Positions 19,709 through 43,157 of a DNA stretch of 64,000 bases are shown here, one piece after another. How positions within the stretch are numbered: the first letter of the stretch is position 1; the number at the start of each line of letters is the position of its first letter. The translations under genes and the position numbers were made by a program. The stretch spans positions 174,794-238,793 of the forward strand of contig JAQVLA010000001.1 in NCBI GenBank assembly GCA_028704385.1, written 5' to 3'. Below the pieces are notes generated by a model, which saw only the letters and a list, made by a program, of their open reading frames with translations, had not been told where the DNA came from and did not search any database. The DNA comes from Bacteroidales bacterium. GTDB lineage: Bacteria; Bacteroidota; Bacteroidia; Bacteroidales; F082.

Positions 19709-19716
19709 TAACTTTG
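19709..19716 (+). promoter_or_regulatory. Candidate -7 promoter box (TAACTTTG) for the ECF sigma gene
   Basis: Matches TAnnTTTG, 53 nt upstream of ATG 19769. Confidence 0.35.
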
Positions 19717-19768
19717 CACCTTATCTGGGCTATTTTTTCGGACAGAGACAGAAGTGCAGAACAAGCAT

Positions 19769-20362
19769 ATGACAGAAGATCAGATTAGATGGATAAGGGG
19801 TCTGAAGACCGGCAAAAAAGAAATCTTTGATGAGATTTTCAGAACCTATTATGGTGAATTGGTGGTGTACTGTCTTCGGTTTGTTGCAGACCAGGATATG
19901 GCCGAAGATATCGTGCAGGATATGTTTGTAAAGCTTTGGTTGCGTCATGACGATCTTAATATTCAATCCTCGCTGCAGGCTTATTTGTACAGGGCTACAA
20001 AAAACCATGCATTGAATCATCTAAATCAGTTGAAGATACAGGATAAGTACAAGGAATACATTGGTTTTTTAACTTTAAACGGTACGGAGAGTCCGCTGGA
20101 GAAATTGCAGGAATCTGACCTCGAACTGAAAATTAAACATGCAGTATTGAGTCTGCCCGAAAAACGAAGGGAAGTTTTTGAACTCAGCCGGCACGAGGGG
20201 CTAAAAAACAAACAGATTGCCGAACGGCTGAACATCAGTGTGAAAACCGTTGAAAATCAAATGACAAAAGCTTTGGAGCAGCTGAGAAACTTTTTGAAGG
20301 ACTATCTTCCGGTTTTGTTTTTTGGTATTCTGACTTATGTAGAAATTTTCCGGGTTATTTAG
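19769..20362 (+). CDS. ECF-type RNA polymerase sigma-70 factor (Bacteroidota expansion type)
   Basis: Region 2 is FDEIFRTYYGELVVYCLRFVADQDMAEDIVQDMFVKLW. Region 4 HTH is PEKRREVFELSRHEGLKNKQIAERLNISVKTVENQMTKAL. A FecR gene follows directly. Confidence 0.9.
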   Translation: MTEDQIRWIRGLKTGKKEIFDEIFRTYYGELVVYCLRFVADQDMAEDIVQDMFVKLWLRHDDLNIQSSLQAYLYRATKNHALNHLNQLKIQDKYKEYIGFLTLNGTESPLEKLQESDLELKIKHAVLSLPEKRREVFELSRHEGLKNKQIAERLNISVKTVENQMTKALEQLRNFLKDYLPVLFFGILTYVEIFRVI

Positions 20363-20377
20363 AAAGATTTTTTTTAA

Positions 20378-20414
20378 TAATTTTGAAATAGGGGAAAATG
20401 TAACTTAGTTTGTC
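20378..20414 (+). promoter_or_regulatory. Conserved element TAATTTTG-N3-TAGGGGAA-N11-GTTTGTC in the sigma-fecR intergenic region (candidate ECF-dependent promoter or operator)
   Basis: TAATTTTG is at 20378-20385, TAGGGG at 20389-20394 and TTGTC at 20410-20414. The same TAGGGG-N15-TTGTC element recurs at 25981-26006 and 34570-34595. Confidence 0.5.
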
Positions 20415-20447
20415 GTATTAACGAATCGTTAAAAAAGAAACGAAAAA

Positions 20448-21458
20448 TTGAGAAAGTTTATCAGATATAAGAATCTTGCAGCCAAGTACCTCTCAGGTAA
20501 CTGTAATTCCGCGGAACAACAGCAGTTTGAGCGGTGGCTTTCGTTGTCTGATAAGCACAAACATTGGTTTAAAGGGCAGACAAAAGCCTGGGAGCTTTCC
20601 AAAGCAAACACCTTATCTGATTCAATAAATGTTGAAACAGCCTTAAATAAGGTGAATCAGCGCATCGCATTCATGCACCAGCCTCAGCCGCATCGCAATA
20701 AAGCTGCCAGAAAGCCGGTATCAGTTTACAGCTGGGTGGCCGGTGCAGCAGCAGTATTTTTGCTCGGGCTGGCTGTTTTGTTTTTTATGAAAAATGAAAC
20801 ACAACCACAGATGCATGTTTTTGCTGCCATTGAAAAAACCGAAACCCCGCTTCAGCTTCCCGATGGTTCCAGTGTATTTCTTAACAGCGGATCCGAAATC
20901 GCTTATCCTGAAGGCTTTGATTCTGATATCCGGCAAACTACGTTTAAAGGTGAGGCATTGTTTGAGGTGGAATCCAATCCGGAAGCACCTTTTCAAATAT
21001 TGACAGATCATTTTGGTGTTGAAGTGCTGGGTACTAAATTTAATCTGAAAGCAGCACAGGAAACCGATCAGTATTTTGTTGATCTCATTGAGGGAAAATT
21101 AAGGCTCTTCACTTTTGATCAGGATCCAAACAGCAGCATTGAGCAGCTTATACTCTTGCCCGGCGAAAGGGGAATTTTTGATGCTGCTACCAAACGACTT
21201 TTCAGAGCAAAACAAACAGACCTGAATTTTATGGCCTGGCACAGCGGAATACTGGAGTTTATCAATACACCACTTACTGACGCGCTTGAAACAATCAATG
21301 CCCACTATCCGGTAAAATTTTTGCTGGCCGACAAACATCACAACCTGAGAATCACTGCCCGATTTGAAAAAGAATCCTCAGAACAGCTGATCGAGTCGCT
21401 GCAAACCATCTTTAGTTTTGAAGTTATAAGAGACGGACAAACCGTTTATCTCAGATAA
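20448..21458 (+). CDS. FecR-family anti-sigma factor / transmembrane sensor, 336 aa
   Basis: N-terminal anti-sigma region KYLSGNCNSAEQQQFERWL, a single TM helix WVAGAAAVFLLGLAVLFFM, a periplasmic FecR domain LPDGSSVFLNSGSEIAYPE...FEVESNPEAPF, and a C-terminal DUF4974-like tail. TTG start. Confidence 0.85.
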   Translation: MRKFIRYKNLAAKYLSGNCNSAEQQQFERWLSLSDKHKHWFKGQTKAWELSKANTLSDSINVETALNKVNQRIAFMHQPQPHRNKAARKPVSVYSWVAGAAAVFLLGLAVLFFMKNETQPQMHVFAAIEKTETPLQLPDGSSVFLNSGSEIAYPEGFDSDIRQTTFKGEALFEVESNPEAPFQILTDHFGVEVLGTKFNLKAAQETDQYFVDLIEGKLRLFTFDQDPNSSIEQLILLPGERGIFDAATKRLFRAKQTDLNFMAWHSGILEFINTPLTDALETINAHYPVKFLLADKHHNLRITARFEKESSEQLIESLQTIFSFEVIRDGQTVYLR

Positions 21459-21460
21459 TT

Positions 21461-21493
21461 TTTGCCCTGTAATATTCCTTTCAAGTATTTTTG
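21461..21493 (+). promoter_or_regulatory. Candidate complete housekeeping promoter (-33 TTTG, 21-nt spacer, -7 TATTTTTG) for the STN-barrel gene
   Basis: TTTG is at 21461-21464 and TATTTTTG at 21486-21493. The ATG is at 21520. Confidence 0.4.
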
Positions 21494-21519
21494 TACTTTA
21501 GCCACCGCATTAAAAAGTG

Positions 21520-22863
21520 ATGCTAAAAGAACAAAACACCATAATTCCATTTAGTTGCAGCACAGCCAGGTTGAAGACTGACAGCTTGTTTAAGCTATTG
21601 TTTGTTATATTGTGTCTGCATATTTCCATATATCAGCTTCATGCTCAAAAACAGCCCGATAGTCTGGTTTCGTTTCAGATTCAGGATATGGCCTTTGGCG
21701 AAGTGCTCGAAAATCTTTACGAACGTTTTGGTATCAAAGTGGCTTTCAATGCTTCAGATCCTGGTTTCAATAAAAAGGTCAGTTATAGTAAAGATCAGGT
21801 TACTGTCTTGGATTTACTTAATGATTTACTTGATTCGGAAGGCTACGGCTATCGAAAAATAGGGGATCAGTATAATGTTTACAAATCGCAAATAATTGAA
21901 AAGCAAGAGGATCCTGAACCTGTTACCGTTACTACTTCACAACTACCAAAGGATACGGTATTTATACAAAATGCTGTTATTAAAACTGATACCTTGATCG
22001 TGTTGGATACAATCAGGCAAACGGACACGCTGGTGATACGTGATACAATCAGGATATTTGTTGATAAACCAGTTGAGAGCCGCCGTGGCAGAATAAAGGA
22101 ATTACGGAAAAATTTATTTAGTCCTGACGCTAACAGAATCAACGGTAAAAGTGTTGAACTGTATTATGGCAGAAACTACTTCAATACTGACTTTAAAGCA
22201 GGTTCAGCAGAAACAGCTCAGCTCGCAAATCTGTGGAACGAATCACTGGAGCCATCCTTTAAAATGCAGCATCTGGGTGTTCGGTTAAATAAATGTAGTA
22301 ATAACTGGATGTTTTCGGCCAGCTTGACTTATCTTGATTTCGCACAAAACTTCATACACAACCGGACTATCAAAACGGGTGGCTATTATGAGATGGATAC
22401 CCTGGATAGCTACTACAGCATTTCGGGAATAGATACTACCTGGTTTCATGTGGTTGATTCGGCCTATGTTCCGCTCGAGGAATCCAAATACAGTTATCAG
22501 ACTACCAACAGGATTGGGATGCTGCATCTGGGTGTTGATGCCGCGCATCTGGTTGGTCAGTTACCGGGCGTACGGTTTTATGCCCGAGCCGGTTTGGGGC
22601 TTGCGACGGTAATATATAAAAAAGGTTTTGCTTTTGAACCCCAAGCCGAGTATGCCGTCATGGATATGAAAAAACTTGAACTTTCGCCCCTGAATTTTAC
22701 TTTTCGGCTGGCCTTTCTTGCCAGGATGAGAATTTCGGATGAGCTTGACCTTGTTCCTGAAGTGAGCTGGCAGATGCATTTTAACGATTTGCTTAAGGAT
22801 TATCCAATCACAACAAAACCATCTTATCCGGGAATCTCACTGGGACTGGTTTACTATTTTTAA
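21520..22863 (+). CDS. Outer-membrane protein with an N-terminal STN (secretin/TonB N-terminal) signalling-type domain fused to a small C-terminal beta-barrel, 447 aa
   Basis: Signal peptide LFKLLFVILCLHISIYQLHAQ. The STN-like segment is VSFQIQDMAFGEVLENLYERFGIKVAFNASD...VTVLDLLNDLLDSEGYGYRKIGDQYNVY. A DTxxVxDTIR repeat linker follows (12-nt direct repeat GATACAATCAGG at 22006 and 22042). The C-terminal half has alternating amphipathic strands ending in the OMP-type terminal ...GISLGLVYYF. Confidence 0.6.
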   Translation: MLKEQNTIIPFSCSTARLKTDSLFKLLFVILCLHISIYQLHAQKQPDSLVSFQIQDMAFGEVLENLYERFGIKVAFNASDPGFNKKVSYSKDQVTVLDLLNDLLDSEGYGYRKIGDQYNVYKSQIIEKQEDPEPVTVTTSQLPKDTVFIQNAVIKTDTLIVLDTIRQTDTLVIRDTIRIFVDKPVESRRGRIKELRKNLFSPDANRINGKSVELYYGRNYFNTDFKAGSAETAQLANLWNESLEPSFKMQHLGVRLNKCSNNWMFSASLTYLDFAQNFIHNRTIKTGGYYEMDTLDSYYSISGIDTTWFHVVDSAYVPLEESKYSYQTTNRIGMLHLGVDAAHLVGQLPGVRFYARAGLGLATVIYKKGFAFEPQAEYAVMDMKKLELSPLNFTFRLAFLARMRISDELDLVPEVSWQMHFNDLLKDYPITTKPSYPGISLGLVYYF

Positions 22864-22875
22864 TTAAAACATCGT

Positions 22876-25860
22876 ATGAAACTAAAGCAATTAGGGTATT
22901 TTATCTTGCTGCTTGTCGCTATGCTGACCTGGAAAGTTGAAGGACTTTTTGGGCAGCAAACCGAAATCGGCGGAGACCTGATAGCTAACCGAACCCTATT
23001 TGCCGACACCACCTATATTATTGTAGAGGACTTGCGGGTTGCTTCGGGCATCAGCCTACAAATAGAGGCCGGAACACAATTACGTTTCAAACAGGGCAAA
23101 GGTTTGTTGATCGACGGCGGATATCTGAATGCTGTTGGCCAATCTGAGCTTGGAGTAGATTCAATCCGTTTTGTGGCAGACTATACCAATCCTGCACAGA
23201 GCTGGAAATGGAAGGGTATATTGATACAAAACATTCTGGGTGACGGCCAGGTAATTATTGATTTTGTTGTAATAACTAACGCTGAACGCGGTTTGGATAT
23301 CACAAATGCTGCTTATATAAGTGTTTCAAACTCTTTAATAATAAGCAATTACTGGAGAGGGATATCCCTGCTTAATTGTCGCGAGGTTATTTTTGAAAAC
23401 AATCATATCCTGGATAATTACGTAGGGCTAGAGATCATTGCAAACGGAATATTCAGTGTGTCTCATCATAATATTATTCGAAATAATGTATTCAGAACTG
23501 AAACAACAGGGATTTTAGTAATTAATAGTAATGGCGGTAAAAATTATGGTAATGTCATTGAATCTAATGTTCTACAGCAGGGAGTAATTGGGATTTGGAT
23601 CGACAATAGCGGGCAGTCCGGGTCACGTTCAAATACCATTTTTAATAATGCTATTATCAATAATGGGAACGGATTTGGTTATGGGTTATACCTGGCAATG
23701 GATTCAACGATTGTGATGAATAATATTTTTTGGCAAAATAGTACTGCAATAAATTTTAGAAATTCTTCAAATAACATTCTTAAGTACAATAGTTTTTATG
23801 AGAATCATCAGGGTTTAACAATGCCTGCTGCTTCACGGAATAATCAATTGGTTTATAACACCTTCACAGAGCAGGAGAATAAGGTGACGCTATTGGGAGA
23901 AGCAGACAGAACCAGCTTATTACATAATAACTTGATGTATAATAATTTCGATACGGTTGTGATGAATTTAACTGAACAACCGATTATTGCAACTGAAAAT
24001 TATTGGGGAACGATTGACGAATCTGAGATTAAGCAGATGATTATTGATGCTGAGGATAATCCGGAATTAGGAGAAATTCAGTTTTTGCCTTTTCTGGCTG
24101 AACCTGATACCCTTGCGCCTCTCGCACCTCCCTATATGGTGAAAAAGCAATGGGTTAACGATCAGGTCAGGCTGAGCTGGAAGCCATCCCCCGAAGCAAA
24201 TGCCAGGGGGTATAAAGTGTATTTTAATGGATATAAAAACTATGGTTTTGCAGATAATCTGGAAATGATTTCAGACACAATCATCAGTTTACCACAATTG
24301 GTGTTTTCGGATGAAATAGCAGTTACATCTGTTAAAAGCACAGCAAAAGCCATGTTGGGAAATCTGGGATACGAAAGTCCTTATGCATTCGCCAAGCCTT
24401 ACCCCTATGCTGGTTCTGATACAGCGATATGCAAGCACGAATCTGTTTTTAGCATCACCGAAGCACACAACCCCTTTAGCCCTTCGCAAGTGATTTGGAT
24501 AACAGAGGGCGACGGTATTTTTACCAATCCGCTGCAGCTGCATACAAACTATTATCCCGGAAATGAGGACCTTGAAAATGGCTGGGTAAAATTATCATTG
24601 AAAGTACTCACCGCAAATGCTGAATACATTGAAACGTTCCGTTTAACTTTTACGAACGAACCTTTTGTTTCGACAGGGGCAGATACGCTGATTGGGGTTG
24701 ATAGTACTTTATGGTTACAAAGCGCAGTAGCCTGGTATTACGATCAATTACAGTGGATTAGTCTGGGTGATGGATTATTTTCTGACCCATCGGTACAAAA
24801 CCCTGTTTATTATCCGGGACCTGCTGATTATGAAGCCGGAAGTGTTGATCTTATTTTGCAGGCGCAATCCGATTGTGGAAATACACAAGATACTATCAGG
24901 ATATATTTTGAAAGCGTATTTTCTCTGAAAGGAAAAGTCTGGGATGGAAGTACACCATATCCAAAGGCGAAAATACTGGCGTTACGAATTGATTCAAATG
25001 CTTTTAATTTACTAACATCAGTTCGAACGGATGAGCTGGGGAGCTTTGTATTTCCTGAATTATACAGTGGCATTTATGTTTTGCAGGCTGTTCCGGACAC
25101 ATTGGATGCAAATTTAAGTTCAGCGTATTATGCGAGTGCAGCTGTTTGGGATAAGGCACACCATATTCAACTTAACGCCAGGACAGAGGATGTTGATCTG
25201 GTATTCAAGAGGATACAAAATTTCTTGCCTGTAGGAACCAATAGGATCTTTGGCAGATTTAACTTACCTGGAGAGCAGTTTACTGATTCCCATGTATATT
25301 GTGATGACTGGTACCTGCGAAACGATCAGCTGGAGTATTGCAGCGAAGGATTGTCTAATGTAGGCATCCATCTCTATAATCCCGGGATGAATGTATTATT
25401 GGCTTCCACCCGCACAGATTATAAAGGCTATTATTATTTTGATAGTTTGCCCTATGGAAGTTACCGTTTGCACGCTGACCTTCCAGGATATCATATGATT
25501 ACAAGTCAGTTGATAAATTTCACCCCGGAATCCGAAACAACCATTGCAGTTGATTTTAGTTTATTTTTAAAACAGATTAATTCAACGGTATATCCACCTG
25601 GGGAGGAAGTTAAGCAAGGGAAGGCTTTACTATTCCCGAATCCGGTCACAAATCAGATGGCAGTTGTGCATGACTTTGAAGCGATTATTTACATTGGAAT
25701 TTATGATTTATCAGGCAGGCTTGTTTTTGAAAGGAGACAACCGGAAACAGAAGAAGGAAATAAACTATTCATTGATGCTTCTCAGTTGATACCGGGGGTG
25801 TATGGTTTAAGAATAGTTGGTAAATATCAAACACAAGTATTGAAGTTTGTTAAAGAATAG
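22876..25860 (+). CDS. T9SS-secreted right-handed parallel beta-helix repeat protein (NosD/pectin-lyase-fold-like), 994 aa
   Basis: Has a signal peptide. About 22-residue beta-helix repeats rich in N/I/G span roughly aa 120-360 (ITNAERGLDITNAAYISVSNSLIISNYWRGISLLNCREVIFENNHILDNYVGLEI...). There is an Fn3-like segment RLSWKPSPEANARGYKVYFNG and CarboxypepD_reg-like segments. The C-terminal T9SS sorting domain is LLFPNPVTNQMAVV...GVYGLRIVGKYQTQVLKFVKE. The gene starts 12 nt after the STN-barrel gene. Confidence 0.7.
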   Translation: MKLKQLGYFILLLVAMLTWKVEGLFGQQTEIGGDLIANRTLFADTTYIIVEDLRVASGISLQIEAGTQLRFKQGKGLLIDGGYLNAVGQSELGVDSIRFVADYTNPAQSWKWKGILIQNILGDGQVIIDFVVITNAERGLDITNAAYISVSNSLIISNYWRGISLLNCREVIFENNHILDNYVGLEIIANGIFSVSHHNIIRNNVFRTETTGILVINSNGGKNYGNVIESNVLQQGVIGIWIDNSGQSGSRSNTIFNNAIINNGNGFGYGLYLAMDSTIVMNNIFWQNSTAINFRNSSNNILKYNSFYENHQGLTMPAASRNNQLVYNTFTEQENKVTLLGEADRTSLLHNNLMYNNFDTVVMNLTEQPIIATENYWGTIDESEIKQMIIDAEDNPELGEIQFLPFLAEPDTLAPLAPPYMVKKQWVNDQVRLSWKPSPEANARGYKVYFNGYKNYGFADNLEMISDTIISLPQLVFSDEIAVTSVKSTAKAMLGNLGYESPYAFAKPYPYAGSDTAICKHESVFSITEAHNPFSPSQVIWITEGDGIFTNPLQLHTNYYPGNEDLENGWVKLSLKVLTANAEYIETFRLTFTNEPFVSTGADTLIGVDSTLWLQSAVAWYYDQLQWISLGDGLFSDPSVQNPVYYPGPADYEAGSVDLILQAQSDCGNTQDTIRIYFESVFSLKGKVWDGSTPYPKAKILALRIDSNAFNLLTSVRTDELGSFVFPELYSGIYVLQAVPDTLDANLSSAYYASAAVWDKAHHIQLNARTEDVDLVFKRIQNFLPVGTNRIFGRFNLPGEQFTDSHVYCDDWYLRNDQLEYCSEGLSNVGIHLYNPGMNVLLASTRTDYKGYYYFDSLPYGSYRLHADLPGYHMITSQLINFTPESETTIAVDFSLFLKQINSTVYPPGEEVKQGKALLFPNPVTNQMAVVHDFEAIIYIGIYDLSGRLVFERRQPETEEGNKLFIDASQLIPGVYGLRIVGKYQTQVLKFVKE

Positions 25861-25922
25861 TTAATCTTAAAACTAACTTGAATTTTATCAATATTTATAA
25901 GCTGATATTAATGTCAAGTTTT

Positions 25923-25930
25923 TATTTTTG
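25923..25930 (+). promoter_or_regulatory. Candidate -7 box (TATTTTTG, followed by CAG) upstream of giant gene A
   Basis: Homologous to TAATTTTGCAG upstream of gene B. Here it is separated from the TAGGGG element by 50 nt. Confidence 0.35.
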
Positions 25931-25980
25931 CAGCCGATTTTAACAACAACTAAAAATCTTAGAATTATTTTAAATAACGA

Positions 25981-26006
25981 TAGGGGTAAACAAGCCTGAT
26001 ATTGTC
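25981..26006 (+). promoter_or_regulatory. TAGGGG-N15-TTGTC element in the leader of giant gene A
   Basis: TAGGGG is at 25981-25986 and TTGTC at 26002-26006. The spacing equals that of the copies at 20389 and 34570. Confidence 0.45.
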
Positions 26007-26310
26007 TTAGGGTTGAGTTAGCATAAACCAACAAACCAATAATATGCTAACCAAAAAGGGAATAAAGTAAAATATTAACAATTAAAGAACTAACAATCAA
26101 TACCTGGCATTTTAAAAAAGACACGCGCAATTATTGCGATTATTTTGTGTATTACAGGTTGTATAACTTCAAAAGCTGAATATGAACTATCCTGATCAGC
26201 GTACCTATCAAAAACTTTTTTTCAACAAGGATTTACTCTGGACTGTTGCGGATCGCAGCGTCCAATTTCAATCGATAACACAATCAATTCATCATTTTTT
26301 ATTAACTAAA

Positions 26311-26355
26311 TCAATTTTAACCATGAACAGAAAAACTACTTTTCTGCGATGGCTT
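26311..26355 (+). repeat. 45-nt block identical to 34838-34882 (translation-initiation region of giant genes A and B)
   Basis: TCAATTTTAACCATGAACAGAAAAACTACTTTTCTGCGATGGCTT is identical in both genes. The following signal-peptide codons diverge strongly. Confidence 0.9.
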
Positions 26356-29300
26356 GGTTCCTTTATGGTAGGAGTTTTCCTGCTTTCCGGAATCGGGCTT
26401 AATGCTTATGCGCAACAAGCGTCGCGCAGAGCTCCGGTTGATCCTTCGACACTGGTAGGAATGCCAGCCGAACGACAAAATGCCGGAACTTTTACACCTT
26501 CTAACCGTGAAGCTCAAAACATTGACATCACTGTTGATGTTGATAATTGGTTCGATGAAGCTGAATGGAATATCTGGAGCTATGACCAAGGTGCCTATTA
26601 TTATCCTTCATGGCAGCTTTTTAGTTCTTCCTTTGAAGTTGTTAATGTTATTGTTGGCCTTGAGCCAGGCGATTATTCCATTGATGTATGGGATGATTTT
26701 GGTGATGGCGGCATCGGGGGCATAGTTAAACAAGGTTTGGTAACCTTGGTGAGCTGGGATAATTATGATTATACAGATTTTGCCTGGTTTGATTTTACTG
26801 TTTTTGAACCAGCTCCACGCGTTGATGTTACTCCTTTGGTACTTGATTTGGGCGATCGTCCAATCAATTCCTGGACAGAACCTGCTTATTTCACCGTACA
26901 AAATACAGGTGTAGGTCCTGTAACTATCAATAATGCCGAAATTGCTGCCGATGCTTTCTTCGGCGTAGCTGCTCCTTCATTCCCCATTACTTTAGAAGAA
27001 GGAGAAACTGTTGAAATTGGTATTACTGCCACAGGCAATGCTGCTCCTGGTTTGCTCGAAGGCGACTTCGTAGTGCAATGGGGTGCTGGCCGCGAAGTGA
27101 CCGTAACCGAATTTATGGCTAATGCCTATGAACCAATTGTTGCAGATGTGGTTGAAACAGCTATTGAGCTGCCTGTTAATACGATGGCTCCTGCAAGTTT
27201 GCCAATAGCTGATTCAAGAGAGTTTGGTGGTATTTACAAGAACTATATCTTGCCTAATGATGTTGGATCTGGTCCAAATGATAACGACTATGTATATCTG
27301 CTTCTACCCGCAACAGACATGCTGTTTGATGTGTATGTGACCAGTGGTTCTGCTAATTTTGCTATTTATGCTGCTGACTTTAGCGGCGAAGATGGCCCAA
27401 TGGCAACCAATGCCTTAGTTCAGGCAGTTGATGCAATTGACGATTTCGAACTCTTTGCTGGCACTTACTATTTAGTAGGTAGCTCTTTGGATGTATGGGG
27501 TGGCTCATTTAATGTAGATGCTATGCCAGATCCAGAAGCAGCTATCAACATTGCTCCTGCTGATGGAGCTGTAGATATTATCAATGGTACTGATCTGGAG
27601 TGGGCATTTGGAGCCAATACACTGGAATATCAGGTTATTTTGGGTACTACCTATCCACCTGCAACTGTTGTTGTTGACTGGACGGATGAGTTAGCTACTT
27701 CCTATACCCTTTCTAATCTTGAACCTAACCTTCAGTATTTCTGGCAGGTTAATGTACGTAATAATGGTGCTACAACTACCGGCGAAGTTTGGGGATTCAC
27801 TACTACTTTAACTCCTCCATCTGATCTTACAGGTAATGCTGAAGTTTACGAAGGTGAAGATGTTGTTTTAACATGGGAAAGCCCTGTTGACCGTGCCTTC
27901 CTCGGATACAATGTATTTAAGGATGGCATACAGCAAAATGTTTCTATGCTTACCGAAGCTACCTACACAGATGTAGCTCCTGCATACAATATGACTCCTG
28001 GATATGAGTACACCGTTACCGCTATCTATGACGAAGGCGAATCAGATCATTCTGCTCCTTTCACTGCACAGGTAACAGGCGAAGGTACCTTAAATGGTAA
28101 TGTTTCTGACCTGAATACAGGTGATGACATTGCTGGTGCTACTGTTTCCATGATTGGTGTGGATGAGTTTGGTGAAGATCAATCATACAGCACCACTACG
28201 GATGCCAATGGAAATTATACCGCTGATGTTTTCGCCGGCACTTACGACATTCGCGTTACTGCTGACGGTTACCTGCCTGCAGAAGTAACTGGCGTGGCTC
28301 TTGCCTATGGAGCTACCGAAACTACTGACTTTGTTCTGAATGAAACACCTTATCCGGTTGCCGTTGTAACTGCCAGCGAGTTTGGTGAAAACATCCTGAT
28401 AGAGTGGAGCTTTGATTTAGTTAACTTTGTTCCTCAGGTTTATCCTTTCGATAGCGAAAGTATGAACGAAGCTCAAATCCAGAAAATGTGGAAGGGATTC
28501 CTTGCTGAGAATAACTTCGATGCTACCGCTCAGGGAAGTGATCGCGCACTGGTTGAATTCCAGGTATGGCGTGAAAAAGCTTACCTGCCAGGAACTATCG
28601 AATTGGTTGGTACTACTTCACAATTCCAATTTGTTGACTTCGACTGGGATGTTCAGGATTGGGGTGTTTACAAATGGTATGTAGTTGCAGTTTATGATCT
28701 GAACGAATCAGATCCTGTAGGTTCAAATACAGTTGACAAGGACATGAACACTGTTGTTGATGTTACTGTTGCCCTCAATTCAGCTGACAGCCCTGCCGGT
28801 ACGCTCGTTGAGTTTACCAATGTGGACGAATCTCCTGAGTTGATTTATTCAGCCTTGCTGCCTGCAAGTGGTGAGTACGAATGGAGTGAGTTCCGCAAAG
28901 GTACCTACGACATCCTTGTAAGCTTACCAGGATATGGTGTTGTAAACGAAACCGGTGTTGATATTTTCGACGAAACCTCATTCGAATGGTTGCTCGAAGA
29001 ATTACTCGCAACACCTGCTGACCTTTATGTTACCCCAACAGGTTTTGCTACCTGGACAGGTGGAAGCGGTGAAGTGCCATTTGTTCCTGTTGTAGTTGAC
29101 TTTAATGATGGCATACCAGCTGACTGGACTGTTGAAGACGGTGAATTAGCTAATGCTTCTGGTGGAAGTTGGCAGGTAGTTCCTTCAACTTCCGGAAGGT
29201 ATATGATGGGCGATGATTATGTAATTGCTGATTCTGACGCAGCTGGAAGCGGAAGTATTACCCATACTATACTTACTTCTGCTGTTTATCCTGCCGAAGG

Positions 29301-32300
29301 TGAAAGTGCCTTGTATGTTGAGTTTGATCAATATTATTATTATTCAAGTTATTATCCAACATTCTCAAAAGTATCTGTATTTGACGGTACTTCCTGGGTA
29401 GTTGTATTGGATCAAACTGCTACCTCAGGCACATGGTCAACACCTGCACATATTGTTATAGATGTTTCAGCTTATGCTAATGCTGATTTCCAGGTTCGCT
29501 TCGAATATTATGGCGACTGGTCGTTCTATTGGGGAGTTGATAATATTGGTATAACAAATGCCACTCCTCCAACCCGTTCATTCGAAACTTATAAAGTATT
29601 CCTTGATGGCACTTTGCTTGGTGAAGTAACTGAAACAGAATACCAACATGGTGGATTTGGTGAAATCCTCGTTGATGGTGAAACCTATACTACCGGTGTT
29701 GCTGCTGTATTCTCAACGGGTCAATCAGCTACTGCTGAATTTACCTGGTTGTATGTAGCCTGTGACAATTACGATGCTCCTACAGCTTTCACTGCTGAAC
29801 AGGTAATTGGAACACTCGATGTAGCTCTTAACTGGACTAACGTTGATGCTGCAGCCCTGGATACCATCTCAGCTTTGAGAATTTATCGCAATGGTGAAGA
29901 ATATGTTGAGCTTGATTTCACAGCCGGAGCGGTTGATACTTATCTGGACGAAGAACTCGAATTCGGAACTTATAACTATTGCCTTACCTACATCTATGAC
30001 AGCGGTGCCGAAACCTGTGTTGACGCAGTATGCTCAGAAGATGTTGTAATCACTGGTGGTGGTTATGTAAACGGTACCGTAACTGCTTTTGACGGTGGTG
30101 CCCCAATTGGTGGTGCTACAGTTACCATCTTTAACGATAACTTTAGCTTTGAGTTTACTACCAATGCAAGCGGTTATTATGAAGGTGAAGTTGTTGACGG
30201 AACTTACGATTATCTGGTAGGTGCCGAAAACTTTGAATCACAATTGTTAGAAGATGTAACAATCACCTTTGGTGAAACCGTTACCCAAAACTTCCAATTG
30301 CTTGAATTCCCCTTCCCGGTAAATAGCGTTGTTGCTGAGTACCAAGGTGAAAATGCTGTTAAAGTATATTGGAACTCACCTGGCACTTCAGGTGGTGGCG
30401 GAACCGTATTTGAAGATTTCGATGATGGAATGCCAAGTATGTTGGTTGTTGATGAGCCAGTTGCTAACTGGACTGTCGCCAACAGTTTCCTTAATCTGAG
30501 TTCTAGTGGAACAAGCGCATGGAGGTCAGCTTATTACAATGCAGAATATAGTGATGTATTGTTTGAGGTTGAAACACAACGTACAACTGGTGCTACAACA
30601 GGTGCTATGGGTATCTATGTTCGTGGTACCGGTGTTGTTGATCCAACTGTTGGTAATGGCGAAAGTGCTAACGTTTTCACTATCACCCAGAGTGGGTCAT
30701 GGTGGTATGCCACTTTGCTTAACGGTGACCTGATGGGCGACTGGACTGGCTGGATGACTTCATCCGCTATCAATACAAGTGGTCCAAACGTTATTACCGC
30801 CGTGGCTCAGGGTACTACCGTTCAGTTCTTCGTTAACAATACCCTTGTTTATACTGTTAACAATACCACACTTACCGAAGGTAAAGTAGGTATGTTTATC
30901 GCAGAAGGAACAGCTGCTGCTACAACAGTATGGGATTATATGATGATTGAACCGGGTGGCGTTGTAACTCGCGACTATGAAACTAACCATATTGCTATCG
31001 AAAGCAAAGGCTCATTAAGTGAATCTTACATCGCTTATGAAAATACCGTTGAACCCAAAGGAGTGAGCTATCATAAAAACACTGCCAGCTCACGCGAACT
31101 GGAAGGCTATAATGTTTATCGCATGCCTTGCTATGATGACGAAGACTTCACATTCCTGGGTTATACCCTTGATACTGTTTTCGTTGACAATCAGTTTGGT
31201 GGATTGGATGCTGGTGTTTACAAATGGGCTGTTGAGGCTGTTTACACCAATAACGAAGCAGAACCTCAGTTCTCCAACTGTCTCGACAAAGACATGATCA
31301 CAACTGTAAGTGTTACGGTAACTACTAACAGCGGCGACAGCCCTGAAGAAACCGATGTGATGTTCACCAATATTTCTGAACCAGATCTTGAATTGGTTTA
31401 CGAAGTAGAACTGGACGAAACTGGTTTCTACGCATGGGAAGAATTCCGCAAAGGTGTTTATGACATTTACGTTGAAAAGAATGGCTTTGCACCAATCGAA
31501 CTGATGGGCTATGTGATTGATGGTCCTGAAGCATTTGAATGGTTACTCGAAGAACTCTTGTTACCTGTTGCTGACCTATACGTAACACCTACTGGTTTTG
31601 CTACCTGGAGGTCAGGTGGAGAAATTCCTTTCGAACCTTTCATGGAAGGCTTCAACGATGGATTACCTGAAACATGGACGATTATTGATGGCGGAAGCAC
31701 TTCCGACACCTGGTATAATGTTACACCTGCTGGTAATCCACAATCTCCTGGTTCATCGCTTGATGGAACACCATTTATGTTTGCTGATTCTGATGGAGCC
31801 GGTTCAGGTTCTACAATGGATGAGCAGATGATATCACCTGTAATCAATGCAGAAAATGCTGACGAACTATATTTGATGTTTGATTATCTCTACATTAATC
31901 TGTCAACAAGTGAATATTTCTCAGTAGATGTATTTGATGGTGATGATTGGGTAGAAGTATTCTTCTCACAGACTGATTCAGGTTCATGGCCATGGGATGA
32001 TGCTACTACAGCTGAAATTGATGTGACCGAATATGCAAATGATATGTTCCAGGTACGTTTCAACTACTTCTCACCAGGCTGGAACTGGTACGTAGCTGTT
32101 GACAATGTTGTTGTTACTGACAATATGGATCGCTATGCTGATCGCGAATTGCAGTACTACAAAGTATGGTTGGACAATAACTTCATTGTTGATACAGAAA
32201 ATACTTTCTGGCAATATGATGTTACCAATTTGGTACCTGGTCAGGACTATCTGGCTGAAGTTGCTGCAGTTTATTCTAACGGTATCTCCGAAAGAATGCA

Positions 32301-34380
32301 ATACGTTTGGACTTATGTTCCTTGCGAAGATTACGCTGGCCCACAGGTTTATAACGGCGAAGTAATCAACGACAACGACGTACTGCTTACCTGGTCAGAT
32401 GTTGAACCACTCGAACTGATACAAATCACCCAGAATCCAGGTGCTCCAAGCAATGGTTATTTCCAACAGTTTGGTTATGGTTATGGTGTTGCTTACGACC
32501 TGAGTGCTTATCCGGATGCAATGGTTAACAGCCTTGATTTCCACCATGCTTCATGGGGTACTACCGGAACATGGGAATACAACATCCACATCTTCGATTG
32601 GGATACTAAAACCCTGATCGAAACTGTTGGACCACTCACAACCACAGGAAACGACCTCTGGGAAATGGGTGTTGAACTGGGAGATATTGCCACCGGTGGT
32701 GTAAGTACTGTTGCTTTGTTAATGGAACCACTCGGTAACATAGCTTCGGATGCTTATCCATGTATTTCATCTGATGATGCTGCTAACCCACAGGGTTCAG
32801 TTTATGGAAGCCTTTCAAATCCATCTGCAATCGGATCTTCTACAATTGGTAACTTCCTGATGGATATGTACATCTATACTGCTTATGGCCCGGTAAGAGC
32901 TACTCCTGTTAATTTTGACCTTGTTGAAGCTCCTGTTGCCCAAGCCAGAGTTGCTGTAAATAATGTACCTGAACTTCCGGTGATTACACAAAATGCTGTT
33001 AGCAGCCGTGATGTTGATCCATTCATTGGTGCAAACATTTACCGCAATGGTGTTCTTATCGCTGAACTTGTACAAGATACCTTCTATCTTGACCAAAACG
33101 TAAATGGTGGTGAATTTACCTACTGCCTGCGTTATGTTTATGAAAGTGGTGCGATGACTTGCGAAGACGCATATTGTCTTGACCTTTCAGTTCCTTGTGA
33201 AGCTCCTGTCAATTTGGCTGGTGAATATCTCTGGCAATATAATGAAGGAAATCCAGAATTTGGATCATTAATCACCTGGGAATCTGCAACACCTCCTGTT
33301 GCCGAATGGTTATACTATGATGATGGTGTAAACGTTGACGGTATCGGTGGTCCTGCTTCTTTCTCATGGGCAATCAAATTCGACCCTGCTCAACTGGAAG
33401 ATTATGCTGGTGCTTCACTGACCAAGATCAGCATTTACAACAGAACCGGAGCAACCGATGAGCTGCGTATCTACGAAGGTACCAATGCCGCTACATTGCT
33501 GCATACCCAGCCATTGAGTGGTTTAGGTATCGAAACATGGGAAGAAGTTGATCTTACTAGTCCTGTTCTCATTGATGTTACTAAACAACTCTGGATCACA
33601 GTTTACACCACTGATGGTGTGAATTATCCTGCTGGTTGTGGTAATGCTCAGGGTCAACCTAATGGTGACTTGATCACGCTTGATGGCGTTCTTTGGGAAC
33701 ACTTAACAGATTATGCGCTTCCTTATACATGGAACCTCCGTGGTTATGTTACTACCGCAGTTGGCGCTACTGTTGCCTTGCCAATGGATAAACCGAATGA
33801 TGTTTACAACAATGATGTTCGTGCAGAATTGACTGTATCCGGAACCGGTGCCGGCGAGAATGCTGTTTTGGAAACTACTGCTAGCCGCGAATTATTTGTT
33901 TACAACGTTTATCGCAGCGAAGATGGTGACGACTATGAGTGGATTGCTGCTGTGCCATTTGATGCAGCAACCTCAACATATGAATACTATGATACAGATG
34001 TTGATGCTCAGGTAGGTTACTACTATCAGGTAACTGCATTACATACTTATGATGACGATACTGAGTGTGAATCAGCACCAGCAATGGCACTTGATAATCC
34101 AGAGGACGACTTTGTTTATGTATTTGTAACCAATGTTGATGAACTGGGTGCTGCTGAAGCCCGCATGTTCCCGAACCCGGCTACAAACAACGTAACCATC
34201 GAAGCTGCCGGTATGAATCGTATCACGGTTATCAATGCAGTGGGTCAGGTAGTTTACGATTCAGAGATCAGCAACGTAAGAACTCAGTTCAACGTTGCAT
34301 CTTACGAAGCAGGTGTTTATGTAGTACGCATCAATACTGAAAGTGGTGTTGTAACTAAACGTCTGACTATCGTACGCTAG
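26323..34380 (+). CDS. Giant T9SS-secreted multidomain surface protein, paralog A (2685 aa from ATG 26323)
   Basis: Signal peptide MNRKTTFLRWLGSFMVGVFLLSGIGLNAYAQQ (the track ORF begins 47 codons earlier). The body contains repeated Fn3-like, CarboxypepD_reg-like (GTLNGNVSDLNTGDDIAGATVSM...TTDANGNYTADVFAGTYDIRVTADGY), MAM/choice-of-anchor-J-like, Ig/ASH-like and PPC-like modules, plus a LamG-like insert. The C-terminal T9SS type-A sorting domain is MFPNPATNNVTIEAAGMNRITVINAVGQVVYD...GVYVVRINTESGVVTKRLTIVR. Confidence 0.85.
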   Translation: MNRKTTFLRWLGSFMVGVFLLSGIGLNAYAQQASRRAPVDPSTLVGMPAERQNAGTFTPSNREAQNIDITVDVDNWFDEAEWNIWSYDQGAYYYPSWQLFSSSFEVVNVIVGLEPGDYSIDVWDDFGDGGIGGIVKQGLVTLVSWDNYDYTDFAWFDFTVFEPAPRVDVTPLVLDLGDRPINSWTEPAYFTVQNTGVGPVTINNAEIAADAFFGVAAPSFPITLEEGETVEIGITATGNAAPGLLEGDFVVQWGAGREVTVTEFMANAYEPIVADVVETAIELPVNTMAPASLPIADSREFGGIYKNYILPNDVGSGPNDNDYVYLLLPATDMLFDVYVTSGSANFAIYAADFSGEDGPMATNALVQAVDAIDDFELFAGTYYLVGSSLDVWGGSFNVDAMPDPEAAINIAPADGAVDIINGTDLEWAFGANTLEYQVILGTTYPPATVVVDWTDELATSYTLSNLEPNLQYFWQVNVRNNGATTTGEVWGFTTTLTPPSDLTGNAEVYEGEDVVLTWESPVDRAFLGYNVFKDGIQQNVSMLTEATYTDVAPAYNMTPGYEYTVTAIYDEGESDHSAPFTAQVTGEGTLNGNVSDLNTGDDIAGATVSMIGVDEFGEDQSYSTTTDANGNYTADVFAGTYDIRVTADGYLPAEVTGVALAYGATETTDFVLNETPYPVAVVTASEFGENILIEWSFDLVNFVPQVYPFDSESMNEAQIQKMWKGFLAENNFDATAQGSDRALVEFQVWREKAYLPGTIELVGTTSQFQFVDFDWDVQDWGVYKWYVVAVYDLNESDPVGSNTVDKDMNTVVDVTVALNSADSPAGTLVEFTNVDESPELIYSALLPASGEYEWSEFRKGTYDILVSLPGYGVVNETGVDIFDETSFEWLLEELLATPADLYVTPTGFATWTGGSGEVPFVPVVVDFNDGIPADWTVEDGELANASGGSWQVVPSTSGRYMMGDDYVIADSDAAGSGSITHTILTSAVYPAEGESALYVEFDQYYYYSSYYPTFSKVSVFDGTSWVVVLDQTATSGTWSTPAHIVIDVSAYANADFQVRFEYYGDWSFYWGVDNIGITNATPPTRSFETYKVFLDGTLLGEVTETEYQHGGFGEILVDGETYTTGVAAVFSTGQSATAEFTWLYVACDNYDAPTAFTAEQVIGTLDVALNWTNVDAAALDTISALRIYRNGEEYVELDFTAGAVDTYLDEELEFGTYNYCLTYIYDSGAETCVDAVCSEDVVITGGGYVNGTVTAFDGGAPIGGATVTIFNDNFSFEFTTNASGYYEGEVVDGTYDYLVGAENFESQLLEDVTITFGETVTQNFQLLEFPFPVNSVVAEYQGENAVKVYWNSPGTSGGGGTVFEDFDDGMPSMLVVDEPVANWTVANSFLNLSSSGTSAWRSAYYNAEYSDVLFEVETQRTTGATTGAMGIYVRGTGVVDPTVGNGESANVFTITQSGSWWYATLLNGDLMGDWTGWMTSSAINTSGPNVITAVAQGTTVQFFVNNTLVYTVNNTTLTEGKVGMFIAEGTAAATTVWDYMMIEPGGVVTRDYETNHIAIESKGSLSESYIAYENTVEPKGVSYHKNTASSRELEGYNVYRMPCYDDEDFTFLGYTLDTVFVDNQFGGLDAGVYKWAVEAVYTNNEAEPQFSNCLDKDMITTVSVTVTTNSGDSPEETDVMFTNISEPDLELVYEVELDETGFYAWEEFRKGVYDIYVEKNGFAPIELMGYVIDGPEAFEWLLEELLLPVADLYVTPTGFATWRSGGEIPFEPFMEGFNDGLPETWTIIDGGSTSDTWYNVTPAGNPQSPGSSLDGTPFMFADSDGAGSGSTMDEQMISPVINAENADELYLMFDYLYINLSTSEYFSVDVFDGDDWVEVFFSQTDSGSWPWDDATTAEIDVTEYANDMFQVRFNYFSPGWNWYVAVDNVVVTDNMDRYADRELQYYKVWLDNNFIVDTENTFWQYDVTNLVPGQDYLAEVAAVYSNGISERMQYVWTYVPCEDYAGPQVYNGEVINDNDVLLTWSDVEPLELIQITQNPGAPSNGYFQQFGYGYGVAYDLSAYPDAMVNSLDFHHASWGTTGTWEYNIHIFDWDTKTLIETVGPLTTTGNDLWEMGVELGDIATGGVSTVALLMEPLGNIASDAYPCISSDDAANPQGSVYGSLSNPSAIGSSTIGNFLMDMYIYTAYGPVRATPVNFDLVEAPVAQARVAVNNVPELPVITQNAVSSRDVDPFIGANIYRNGVLIAELVQDTFYLDQNVNGGEFTYCLRYVYESGAMTCEDAYCLDLSVPCEAPVNLAGEYLWQYNEGNPEFGSLITWESATPPVAEWLYYDDGVNVDGIGGPASFSWAIKFDPAQLEDYAGASLTKISIYNRTGATDELRIYEGTNAATLLHTQPLSGLGIETWEEVDLTSPVLIDVTKQLWITVYTTDGVNYPAGCGNAQGQPNGDLITLDGVLWEHLTDYALPYTWNLRGYVTTAVGATVALPMDKPNDVYNNDVRAELTVSGTGAGENAVLETTASRELFVYNVYRSEDGDDYEWIAAVPFDAATSTYEYYDTDVDAQVGYYYQVTALHTYDDDTECESAPAMALDNPEDDFVYVFVTNVDELGAAEARMFPNPATNNVTIEAAGMNRITVINAVGQVVYDSEISNVRTQFNVASYEAGVYVVRINTESGVVTKRLTIVR
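29564..30100 (+). repeat. High-identity block shared with giant gene B (37704-38240, constant offset 8140)
   Basis: Hand count gives 3 mismatches in 170 nt for 29731-29900 vs 37871-38040. Identity is about 89-95% in the flanks and drops to about 65-70% after about 30100. Confidence 0.85.
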
Positions 34381-34418
34381 TCTGATGAAATCGAAATTTT
34401 GATTTCGACATATACAAG

Positions 34419-34447
34419 CCGGATCCCAACAGGGATCCGGTTTTTTT
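34419..34447 (+). terminator. Intrinsic terminator after giant gene A
   Basis: CCGGATCCC-AACA-GGGATCCGG followed by TTTTTTT. An AT-rich hairpin TCGAAAT-TTTG-ATTTCGA (34391-34408) precedes it. Confidence 0.8.
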
Positions 34448-34558
34448 ATTAATAATTTTGACATTTTTCTGAATGTCCTAAACATCTAAAGGTCTGATGT
34501 TTTGGTCATGAAATAAGAATAAATTTCTATAAAACCCTTGTATTTATTAGGCTTTTAT

Positions 34559-34595
34559 TAATTTTGCAGTAGGGGAACTTTCATTTGAGTTTGTC
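34559..34595 (+). promoter_or_regulatory. Conserved element TAATTTTG-N3-TAGGGGAA-N11-GTTTGTC upstream of giant gene B
   Basis: TAATTTTG is at 34559-34566, TAGGGG at 34570-34575 (contains GGAAC at 34573-34577) and TTGTC at 34591-34595. It aligns with 20378-20414. Confidence 0.5.
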
Positions 34596-34837
34596 TTAAC
34601 CACAACCAAGGGACAGAATAACTCCAATTTTAACTTAAACAACAGTAAAAAAAACTGCTGCTTGAAGTTTATATGTATAAATTTCAAGATAGTTTACTAA
34701 ACCTGTTTAATTAAATAATGGAGTATAATAGTTTTTATCCTTTTCATTTACGAAGAATCTCTGACCATTACGTCGCAGCTGCTTGCCATTGCTGTGCGAA
34801 TGTTTTTTTTTATTTGATCAATTATTTATTCACTAAT

Positions 34838-43118: not shown

Positions 43119-43157
43119 AAAAGAGACTGCCGATAGGTGGTCTCTTTTGTGTTTTTA
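43119..43157 (+). terminator. Intrinsic terminator after giant gene B
   Basis: AAAAGAGAC (43119-43127) pairs with GTCTCTTTT (43140-43148), followed by T-rich GTGTTTTT. An AT-rich hairpin CAGTTTT-TATTA-AAAACTG (43091-43109) precedes it. Confidence 0.7.

Follow-up and report, generated by a model that had tools for sequence, protein, structure and literature searches.

A conserved bipartite element beside a Bacteroidales sigma/FecR gene pair as the probable promoter recognised by the adjacent extracytoplasmic function sigma factor

The promoter read by sigma-E of Escherichia coli has the form GGAACTT-N16-TCAAA, and that read by sigma-W of Bacillus subtilis the form TGAAAC-N16-CGTA. As quoted in later papers (PMC3817407, PMC7826278), the rule of Staron 2009 for promoters of extracytoplasmic function (ECF) sigma factors is AAC at -35, CGT or GTC at -10, and a rigid spacer of 16-17 nt. 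Bacteroidota possess the most ECF sigma factors of any phylum analysed, with an average of 22.5 per genome (PMC7826278), and Bacteroides thetaiotaomicron has 50 of them, nearly half in polysaccharide utilisation loci (PULs) (PMC12596196). In this species 24 of 26 PUL-linked ECF sigma genes were assigned to housekeeping promoters, the induced genes being those for the anti-sigma factor and the structural proteins, which are transcribed from ECF-dependent promoters (Martens et al. 2009; PMC2709373). The FecI-like groups ECF05-10 were omitted from the promoter models of Rhodius et al. 2013 (PMC3817407) because they are not autoregulating; no recognition motif was known for any ECF sigma factor of B. 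thetaiotaomicron according to Ryan et al. 2020 (PMC7366714), and the BtModulome paper of 2025 (PMC12596196) discusses a different -30/-10 motif, of other ECF groups. In the literature that we searched, no promoter sequence was found for the PUL-type ECF sigma factors of B. thetaiotaomicron. Here we analyse the element TAGGGG-N15-TTGTC in 64,000 nucleotides of DNA from a Bacteroidales bacterium (GenBank assembly GCA_028704385.1, contig JAQVLA010000001.1, positions 174,794 to 238,793 of the forward strand; this whole stretch is referred to below as the window). The element lies between an ECF sigma gene and a fecR-type anti-sigma gene, and again in the leaders of two giant genes, A and B, for type IX secretion system (T9SS) cargo proteins; it is in all probability a promoter recognised by RNA polymerase carrying the adjacent sigma factor.

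Exactly three exact matches to TAGGGG-N15-TTGTC were found in the window (20389-20414, 25981-26006 and 34570-34595), all of them on the plus strand, with a chance expectation of 0.01 per window and no case of three or more matches among 100 dinucleotide shuffles. Since this pattern had been defined after seeing the sites, the test was repeated with TAGGGG-N17-GTC, a pattern derived from other genomes and so independent of the window sites; the same three sites and no others were recovered (0.27 expected; three or more in 0 of 100 shuffles). The three copies with identical 15-nt spacing that the initial annotation had described were thus borne out by the scan and the shuffles. All three were intergenic and in the same orientation, each upstream of a plus-strand gene, whose start codon lay 34 nt beyond the C of GTC for fecR, 176 nt for giant A and 123 nt for giant B. 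No copy was present in the window upstream of the sigma gene, of the gene for a 448-aa protein with an STN domain and a barrel, or of a third giant gene, C, as had been stated before. The previously noted likeness of the fecR and gene-B copies over about 37 nt was also real and included TAATTTTG 3 nt upstream of TAGGGG; this box, at 34559-34566 in the case of giant B, occupied the same place at the gene-B copy of one orthologous locus (L100). A scan allowing one mismatch added a single match in the window (22892-22917), within the start of a beta-helix gene, which was discarded as a chance match, being intragenic and not kept in orthologues. A generic sigma-70 scan (TTGACA/TATAAT) returned 38 matches in the window vs. 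40 expected and is uninformative in this phylum. The motif scans together covered the 64-kb window plus around 1.7 Mb of fetched loci.

Orthologous loci were obtained by several routes. With the 448-aa protein as anchor, 14 homologue clusters were found among 5.8 billion, and the contigs carrying six of these homologues displayed the same gene order (rplU-rpmA, sigma, FecR, 448-aa protein, beta-helix cargo, giant gene). When reference genomes were scanned with the sigma protein, 11 further orthologous loci were obtained (49-90% sigma identity), labelled as metagenome-assembled genomes (MAGs) of Bacteroidales or Lentimicrobiaceae, and a metagenome scan with the N-terminus of giant B provided further loci with A- and B-type giant genes. 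The motif was present with unchanged spacing at the sigma-fecR junction and upstream of the first giant gene in all the orthologous loci whose sequence reached so far. One locus whose operon lacks a giant gene (L029) had the fecR copy only, and another (L015) kept the motif although its 448-aa protein is only around 24% identical. Gene-B orthologues in three loci (L100, L106 and L108; 55-63% identity) carried the motif, as did the second giant gene of L102; it was absent at giant C, both in the window and in L100, and at an unrelated giant paralogue in L107. All 45 copies of the window, the orthologous and the giant-gene loci were intergenic and preceded fecR by 12-52 nt or giant open reading frames (ORFs) by 122-425 nt. 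Phylogenetic footprinting, which had been proposed together with the initial annotation, thus found the element kept at the fecR, A and B places of syntenic loci.

The spacer and the flanks of the element varied among orthologues whereas the spacing never did. In an unanchored MAFFT alignment of 16 sigma-fecR spacers (window plus 15 orthologues), with a mean column identity of 36%, the invariant columns were A, GGGG, A and GTC, together with two others further downstream in the leader. At the -35 block the gene-B orthologues read GGGGGAATT, GGGGTAATA and GGGGGAAAG, and the AAC seen at gene B of the window was not kept. Directly after the -10-like block of the fecR copy, a TTAA-N7-TTAA pattern (20418-20432, plus strand) was observed in the window and recurred in many orthologues (TTAACGAATCGTTAA, TTAAGGAATTGTTAA, TTAAAGAATTCTTAA, TTAACGTTAGATTAA); the pattern forms a partial palindrome that overlaps the predicted fecR start site. 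Two taxonomic labels were out of place: a locus labelled 'Patescibacteria group bacterium' (L026, JAHJRN010000069.1) is orthologous, with 76% sigma identity and motif copies ahead of both fecR and a giant ORF, and one labelled 'uncultured Burkholderiales bacterium' (L032, CAZUIT010000024.1) has a 43%-identical sigma homologue with two TAGGGG-N17-GTC copies nearby; both labels probably reflect binning contamination.

The same sigma scan also gave about 68 loci at 36-47% sigma identity, labelled Saprospiraceae, Lewinella, Haliscomenobacter, Prolixibacteraceae, Sunxiuqinia, Bacteroides, Muribaculaceae and others. Homologous sigma/FecR loci were thereby located in Sunxiuqinia elliptica and Lewinella cohaerens, which are cultivable. 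Family-wide counts were made on 80 loci, many of them related to each other, so that numbers of loci are not numbers of independent events. Within -40 to +300 of the sigma stop codon, GGGG-N17-GTC occurred in 55 of the 80 loci (0.015 expected per such stretch) and TAGGGG alone in 57 (0.03 expected). When sites were anchored on TAGGGG only, positions +22 to +25 were T, G, T and C at frequencies of 0.82, 0.95, 0.91 and 0.85, and GTC stood at the fixed offset (+23) in 45 of 55 distinct sites, i.e. TAGGGG-N16-TGTC; the 45 sites located beside distant sigma genes gave the same TGTC picture. Presence of the motif just after the sigma gene went with FecR, as it was found in 54 of the 66 loci where FecR follows (36-90% sigma identity) vs. 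2 of the 14 without a detected FecR. Several of the 12 exceptions among the FecR loci carried variants differing in one base with the same spacing (TAGGTG-N17-GTC, TAGGGG-N17-GAC, TAGGGG-N17-GTG). One-base variants after the sigma stop codon, including TAGGGG-N17-GCC, were observed in L031, L084, L037, L061, L056, L072, L079 and L080; such variants may reflect different sigma specificities. Further motif copies preceded other downstream genes in the distant loci.

A profile of 113 distinct sites displayed phased A/T tracts at -28 to -22 and -18 to -10, A or G before TAGGGG, A-A at +7 and +8, and T-T before and after GTC, and the orientation of these sites relative to the downstream gene was strongly biased (103 vs. 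10). In the family profile purines were most frequent 10-11 nt past the C of GTC (frequencies of A, 0.60 and 0.73), and on this basis transcription is predicted to start near 20424, 26016 and 34605 in the window, at purines 10 nt after each GTC. With this purine as +1, TAGGGG would fall at around -35 to -30 and GTC at around -12 to -10, which is the geometry of an ECF promoter, preceded by an A/T-rich tract. The resemblance to ECF promoters in general thus covers two short blocks, a rigid spacer of 16-17 nt that was identical in all orthologues, a GTC -10 block invariant in the 16-spacer alignment, A/T-rich upstream DNA, intergenic and co-oriented sites linked to a sigma/anti-sigma locus, and a small dedicated regulon. 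Two features differ from that general type. The conserved -35 block is (A/G)TAGGGG(N)AA and not GGAAC, and the element lies between the sigma and anti-sigma genes rather than upstream of a sigma gene that autoregulates. The canonical ECF architecture suggested in the initial annotation therefore holds for the 16-17 nt spacer and the GTC -10 block, and does not hold for a GGAAC -35 block. Sequences at -35 differ among ECF groups, and the missing AAC lowers the likeness to the commonest type without lowering the case for a promoter.

The sigma protein of the window matched NCBIfam TIGR02985 at 178.6 bits (cut-off 126.4), as do the sigma factors of the B. thetaiotaomicron systems, and, by analogy, the motif sits where the model of Martens et al. 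(PMC2709373) would put the ECF-dependent promoter. The gene itself has no ECF motif upstream, neither in the window nor in any of the 18 orthologous loci, and in 17 of these 18 a TAnnTTTG box was found 16-77 nt upstream of the sigma start. The sigma gene is thus of the kind that is not autoregulated, with the putative target promoter placed before other genes of the locus, as in B. thetaiotaomicron, where a housekeeping promoter transcribes the sigma gene and an ECF-dependent one the anti-sigma and structural genes. Earlier catalogues would have missed the motif because they searched upstream of sigma genes, and it lies between sigma and anti-sigma. A housekeeping-type box was the only one found in the leader of giant C, and a further one lies around 58 nt upstream of the giant-A motif; boxes equivalent to the latter could be read in L002, L009 and L013, and imperfectly in L007. 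The TAnnTTTG boxes probably drive the sigma gene and giant C and also a basal expression of giant A, which would then have tandem basal and induced promoters.

Taken together, footprinting, the association of the motif with sigma-fecR pairs, the ECF-like geometry and the Bacteroides-type architecture support what the initial annotation had proposed, namely that the element serves the adjacent ECF sigma factor as target promoter and joins fecR with its downstream genes and giants A and B in one regulon. Some points weigh against it. Most ECF promoters have an AAC that is missing from the -35-like block. The conserved -7 box around 58 nt upstream places the giant-A motif inside a possible longer leader, where it may act. 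The scans were confined to the window and the fetched loci, and both the start sites and the dependence on sigma are predictions for an uncultured organism represented by a MAG. The core is common to many paralogous sigma/FecR systems, so another ECF sigma factor of the same genome could read the sites, and the comparison of sites within loci described below ignores the relatedness between loci and counts as supporting evidence only. We nevertheless regard recognition by the adjacent sigma factor as highly probable.

The alternative that survives best, although improbable, is an ECF-type promoter read by one or several paralogous ECF sigma factors encoded elsewhere, the adjacent one not being the regulator, or not the sole one. 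It is favoured by the sharing of the core among sigma/FecR loci at 36-45% sigma identity and by the cross-talk of related ECF sigma factors documented in B. thetaiotaomicron (PMC2709373). Because it is shared by paralogous systems, the core alone cannot identify the regulator, and specificity must lie in the flanking positions. In loci with two or more copies, pairs of sites from the same locus were more alike at core-flanking positions than pairs from different loci (0.47 vs. 0.36; reached by 1 of 2000 label permutations, with relatedness among loci uncorrected), and no such excess appeared in the spacer (0.24 vs. 0.29) or in control flanks (0.29 vs. 0.28). This locus-specific likeness fits recognition by the sigma factor of each locus. 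The motif moreover travels with the adjacent sigma gene in every syntenic orthologue, and neither a second ECF motif nor a second sigma/FecR pair was found in the window.

An operator for a DNA-binding repressor or activator could likewise consist of two blocks at a fixed spacing, and the position of the giant-A motif downstream of a conserved housekeeping -7 box is one where a repressor could block transcription. We consider this very unlikely. The blocks show no dyad or direct-repeat symmetry, the orientation towards the downstream gene is strict (103 vs. 10 sites), and the spacing and the GTC match ECF geometry with a purine at the expected start. Sigma and FecR are the only genes constantly found with the motif, and the loci share no conserved gene for a regulator apart from sigma.

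There is equally little likelihood that the element belongs to sigma-A transcription, be it as a degenerate -33/-7 promoter or as a 5' end or RNA leader motif following TAATTTTG. The housekeeping promoter of Bacteroidota, as Bayley 2000 is cited in PMC7366714, consists of TTTG at -33 and TAnnTTTG at -7. TAnnTTTG boxes adjoin two of the three window copies, TAATTTTG stands 3 nt before TAGGGG at the fecR and gene-B copies of the window and at the gene-B copy of L100, and read-through from the sigma gene would carry transcription across the fecR copy as well. Both forms had been listed as alternatives in the initial annotation, and neither agreed with the conservation. A -7 box that has the TTG of TTGTC as its end requires TA at +16 and +17, which is not conserved, while the GGGG and the C, both foreign to the housekeeping consensus, are. 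A transcript beginning just after TAATTTTG would need that box; none of the 15 other orthologues has it before the fecR copy, and the gene-B copies of L106 and L108 lack it too. No conserved TAnnTTTG -7 box was thus found at the element, and the housekeeping-promoter readings were rejected. An RNA leader was discarded as well, as RNAalifold gave 0 base pairs on 13 orthologous fecR sites, the folds of the three window sites were no better than those of shuffled sequences (z = -0.6, -1.4 and +0.9), and an Rfam scan of the whole window found no family at gathering score.

Finally, chance or a relic of leader duplication between A and B, which are paralogues (around 1200 aa at 75% identity) whose leaders could share ancestry, is hardly credible, given a fecR copy unrelated by descent to the giant genes, a motif kept at around 24% identity of the neighbouring protein with randomised flanks, and 0.01 copies expected.

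If the promoter is read by the adjacent sigma factor, as we propose, its partners would form a cell-surface signalling system of the FecI/FecR type, with a FecI-like sigma factor of the Bacteroides expansion, an adjacent FecR anti-sigma factor and an STN domain on an outer-membrane protein, as in FecI/FecR/FecA of E. coli and in the PUL systems of B. thetaiotaomicron. The outer-membrane partner is the point of difference. In those systems it is FecA or a SusC-like protein, a TonB-dependent transporter with STN, plug and 22-strand barrel. Here, the AlphaFold2 model of the 448-aa protein (mean predicted local distance difference test score, pLDDT, of 68.5; mostly 80-94 in the barrel part) displayed an N-terminal helix, an STN-like domain (50-122), a disordered linker rich in Asp and Thr (125-199) and a small C-terminal barrel (210-446), whose best structural matches were the OmpA transmembrane domain, OmpW, NspA, OpcA and Ail. 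Among the 14 family members, Pfam STN was detected in seven and the small-barrel model OMP_b-brl in four, and no match to Plug or TonB_dep_Rec was found in the 448-aa protein or its family. The lack of both plug and TonB-dependent barrel points to a modified form of cell-surface signalling whose transducer, presumed to be the 448-aa protein, does not act as a transporter. In four of five distant loci checked, the third gene directly after sigma and FecR encodes a plug-containing TonB-type receptor; in the fifth (L042) a further motif copy stands between fecR and the receptor gene.

The circuit that we propose for the locus would then operate as follows. A housekeeping promoter would transcribe the sigma gene, and the membrane-located FecR would hold the sigma factor inactive. 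Within the 448-aa protein, the STN domain would relay to FecR a signal arriving at the outer membrane, and the sigma factor would be released. Once free, it would fire the promoters of the fecR operon, giant A and giant B, at each of which TAGGGG would serve at around -35 to -30 and GTC at around -12 to -10, with an A/T-rich tract upstream and transcription beginning on a purine some 10 nt beyond the C. The fecR transcript would comprise the genes of FecR, the STN protein and the beta-helix cargo, with feedback on the anti-sigma factor and the transducer but not on sigma itself, and giant C would lie outside the regulon.

The features of the locus are collected in Table 1. The beta-helix gene starts 12 nt after the STN gene and is the last one of the presumed fecR operon. 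The hairpin with a T run after giant A implies that giant B needs a promoter of its own. A second terminator-like hairpin was observed after giant B (43120-43157, plus strand), where AAAGAGAC and GTCTCTTT are separated by 11 nt and followed by TGTGTTTTT; it also occurs in L100 and was missed by the terminator scan because its loop exceeds 8 nt.

Table 1. Coordinates of genes, predicted promoters and other features of the locus, numbered from the first position of the window.
Feature	Position	Strand	Remarks
Housekeeping (sigma-A type) -7 box TAACTTTG, upstream of the ECF sigma gene	19709..19716	+	No ECF motif here
ECF sigma gene, 202 aa, Bacteroides expansion family 1	19754..20362	+	Pfam Sigma70_r2, Sigma70_r4_2, Sigma70_ECF
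Predicted ECF promoter, fecR operon	20388..20417	+	ATAGGGGAAAA (-35-like), then TTGTCGTA (-10-like); start predicted near 20424
FecR-type anti-sigma gene	20448..21458	+	Pfam FecR (1.4e-12), FecR_C (6.8e-08)
Gene for STN-domain outer-membrane protein, 448 aa, presumed signal transducer	21517..22863	+	No Pfam matches for the window protein
Gene for beta-helix protein with T9SS C-terminal sorting domain	22876..25860	+	Pfam NosD, Beta_helix, Por_Secre_tail
Housekeeping -7 box TATTTTTG, about 58 nt upstream of the giant-A ECF motif	25923..25930	+	Tandem promoters (probable)
Predicted ECF promoter, giant A	25980..26009	+	ATAGGGGTAAAC, then TTGTCTTA; start predicted near 26016
Stem-loop at the 5' end predicted for the giant-A transcript	26013..26054	+	Stem 26017-26025/26043-26051; C- and A-rich loop
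Giant T9SS cargo gene A, 2732 aa	26182..34380	+	Pfam fn3, CarboxypepD_reg, Por_Secre_tail
Terminator-like hairpin with T run after giant A	34416..34443	+	12 pairs, 7 G-C, then TTTTATTAAT
Predicted ECF promoter, giant B	34569..34598	+	GTAGGGGAAC, then TTGTCTTA; start predicted near 34605
Giant T9SS cargo gene B, 2788 aa	34718..43084	+	Block of about 1200 aa 75% identical to A
Giant T9SS cargo gene C	43321..53424	+	Third giant cargo gene

Giants A, B and C (26182-53424, plus strand) were observed to be mosaic paralogues. A and B share, besides the block listed in Table 1, 69% identity over around 450 aa at the C-terminus and differ in their N-termini; B and C are 68% identical over around 450 aa at the C-terminus and 45-49% identical in two internal blocks. 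This pattern suggests recombination among the three genes. In some giant-A orthologues (L002, 9568-9711; L013, 14716-14858), an in-frame ATG around 47 codons upstream of the called start adds a conserved stretch, MNYxDQRTYQxLFFNK..., which would be either an N-terminal extension before the signal peptide or an upstream ORF.

The stem-loop in the giant-A leader had a folding energy of -10.4 kcal/mol and a z-score of -3.4. A hairpin beginning at the predicted start site was also seen in L002, L007, L009, L013, L022, L025, L026 and L067. Nine orthologues fold a hairpin at this place, and the z-scores ranged from -1.75 to -3.4; the stems differ by lineage (GUUAGCAUA, GUAUCAG, GGAAACAU and others) and the loop keeps AAACCAACAA. 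RNAalifold found no consensus structure on the MAFFT alignment of these leaders because the 3' arms were misaligned. This hairpin may stabilise the 5' end of the transcript.

The targets set the locus apart from the PULs of B. thetaiotaomicron, where SusC/SusD proteins and glycoside hydrolases are controlled; here they would be T9SS cargo, a beta-helix protein and two proteins of around 2700 aa. ECF-type control has been tied to type IX secretion in other Bacteroidota, as PorY-PorX-SigP controls this secretion in Porphyromonas gingivalis (PMC4800418), and an ECF-type motif, SM6, with CGT at -10 is found upstream of T9SS genes in Flavobacterium psychrophilum (PMC9723704). The present system is like these in the link between an ECF sigma factor and type IX secretion and in the CGT/GTC-type -10 block, a likeness by description and not base by base. 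It differs in that they target genes of the secretion machinery, SigP through a two-component system, whereas cargo genes would be controlled here, with FecR and an STN protein as intermediaries.

ECF promoters of FecI/FecR-type systems are a well-known kind of element. A description of this particular motif was not found in the literature searched (motif string, ECF240/ECF239/ECF10, Bacteroides ECF promoters), and the ECF Hub or the supplement of PMC7826278 may list a prediction of it. We put forward tentatively, as a proposal that could fall either way, that (A/G)TAGGGG(N)AA-N11-TTGTC is an uncatalogued core promoter of the whole FecR-linked ECF family of Bacteroidota (TIGR02985; formerly ECF10, now ECF239/240), and that the locus performs surface signalling without a TonB-dependent transporter to control giant T9SS proteins. 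For this organism, the motif ties a sigma/anti-sigma switch to two type IX-exported surface proteins of around 2700 aa, and the signal receiver suggested by the locus is unusual, in that the STN domain is carried by a small barrel and a transporter is lacking. The interest of the motif would rise if it is indeed undescribed throughout the family. Were the proposal true, the regulons of many polysaccharide utilisation and other ECF systems of the phylum would be predictable from sequence, and a validated motif with rigid spacing would allow regulons to be read from genomes, including those of uncultured lineages, and would provide parts for Bacteroides engineering.

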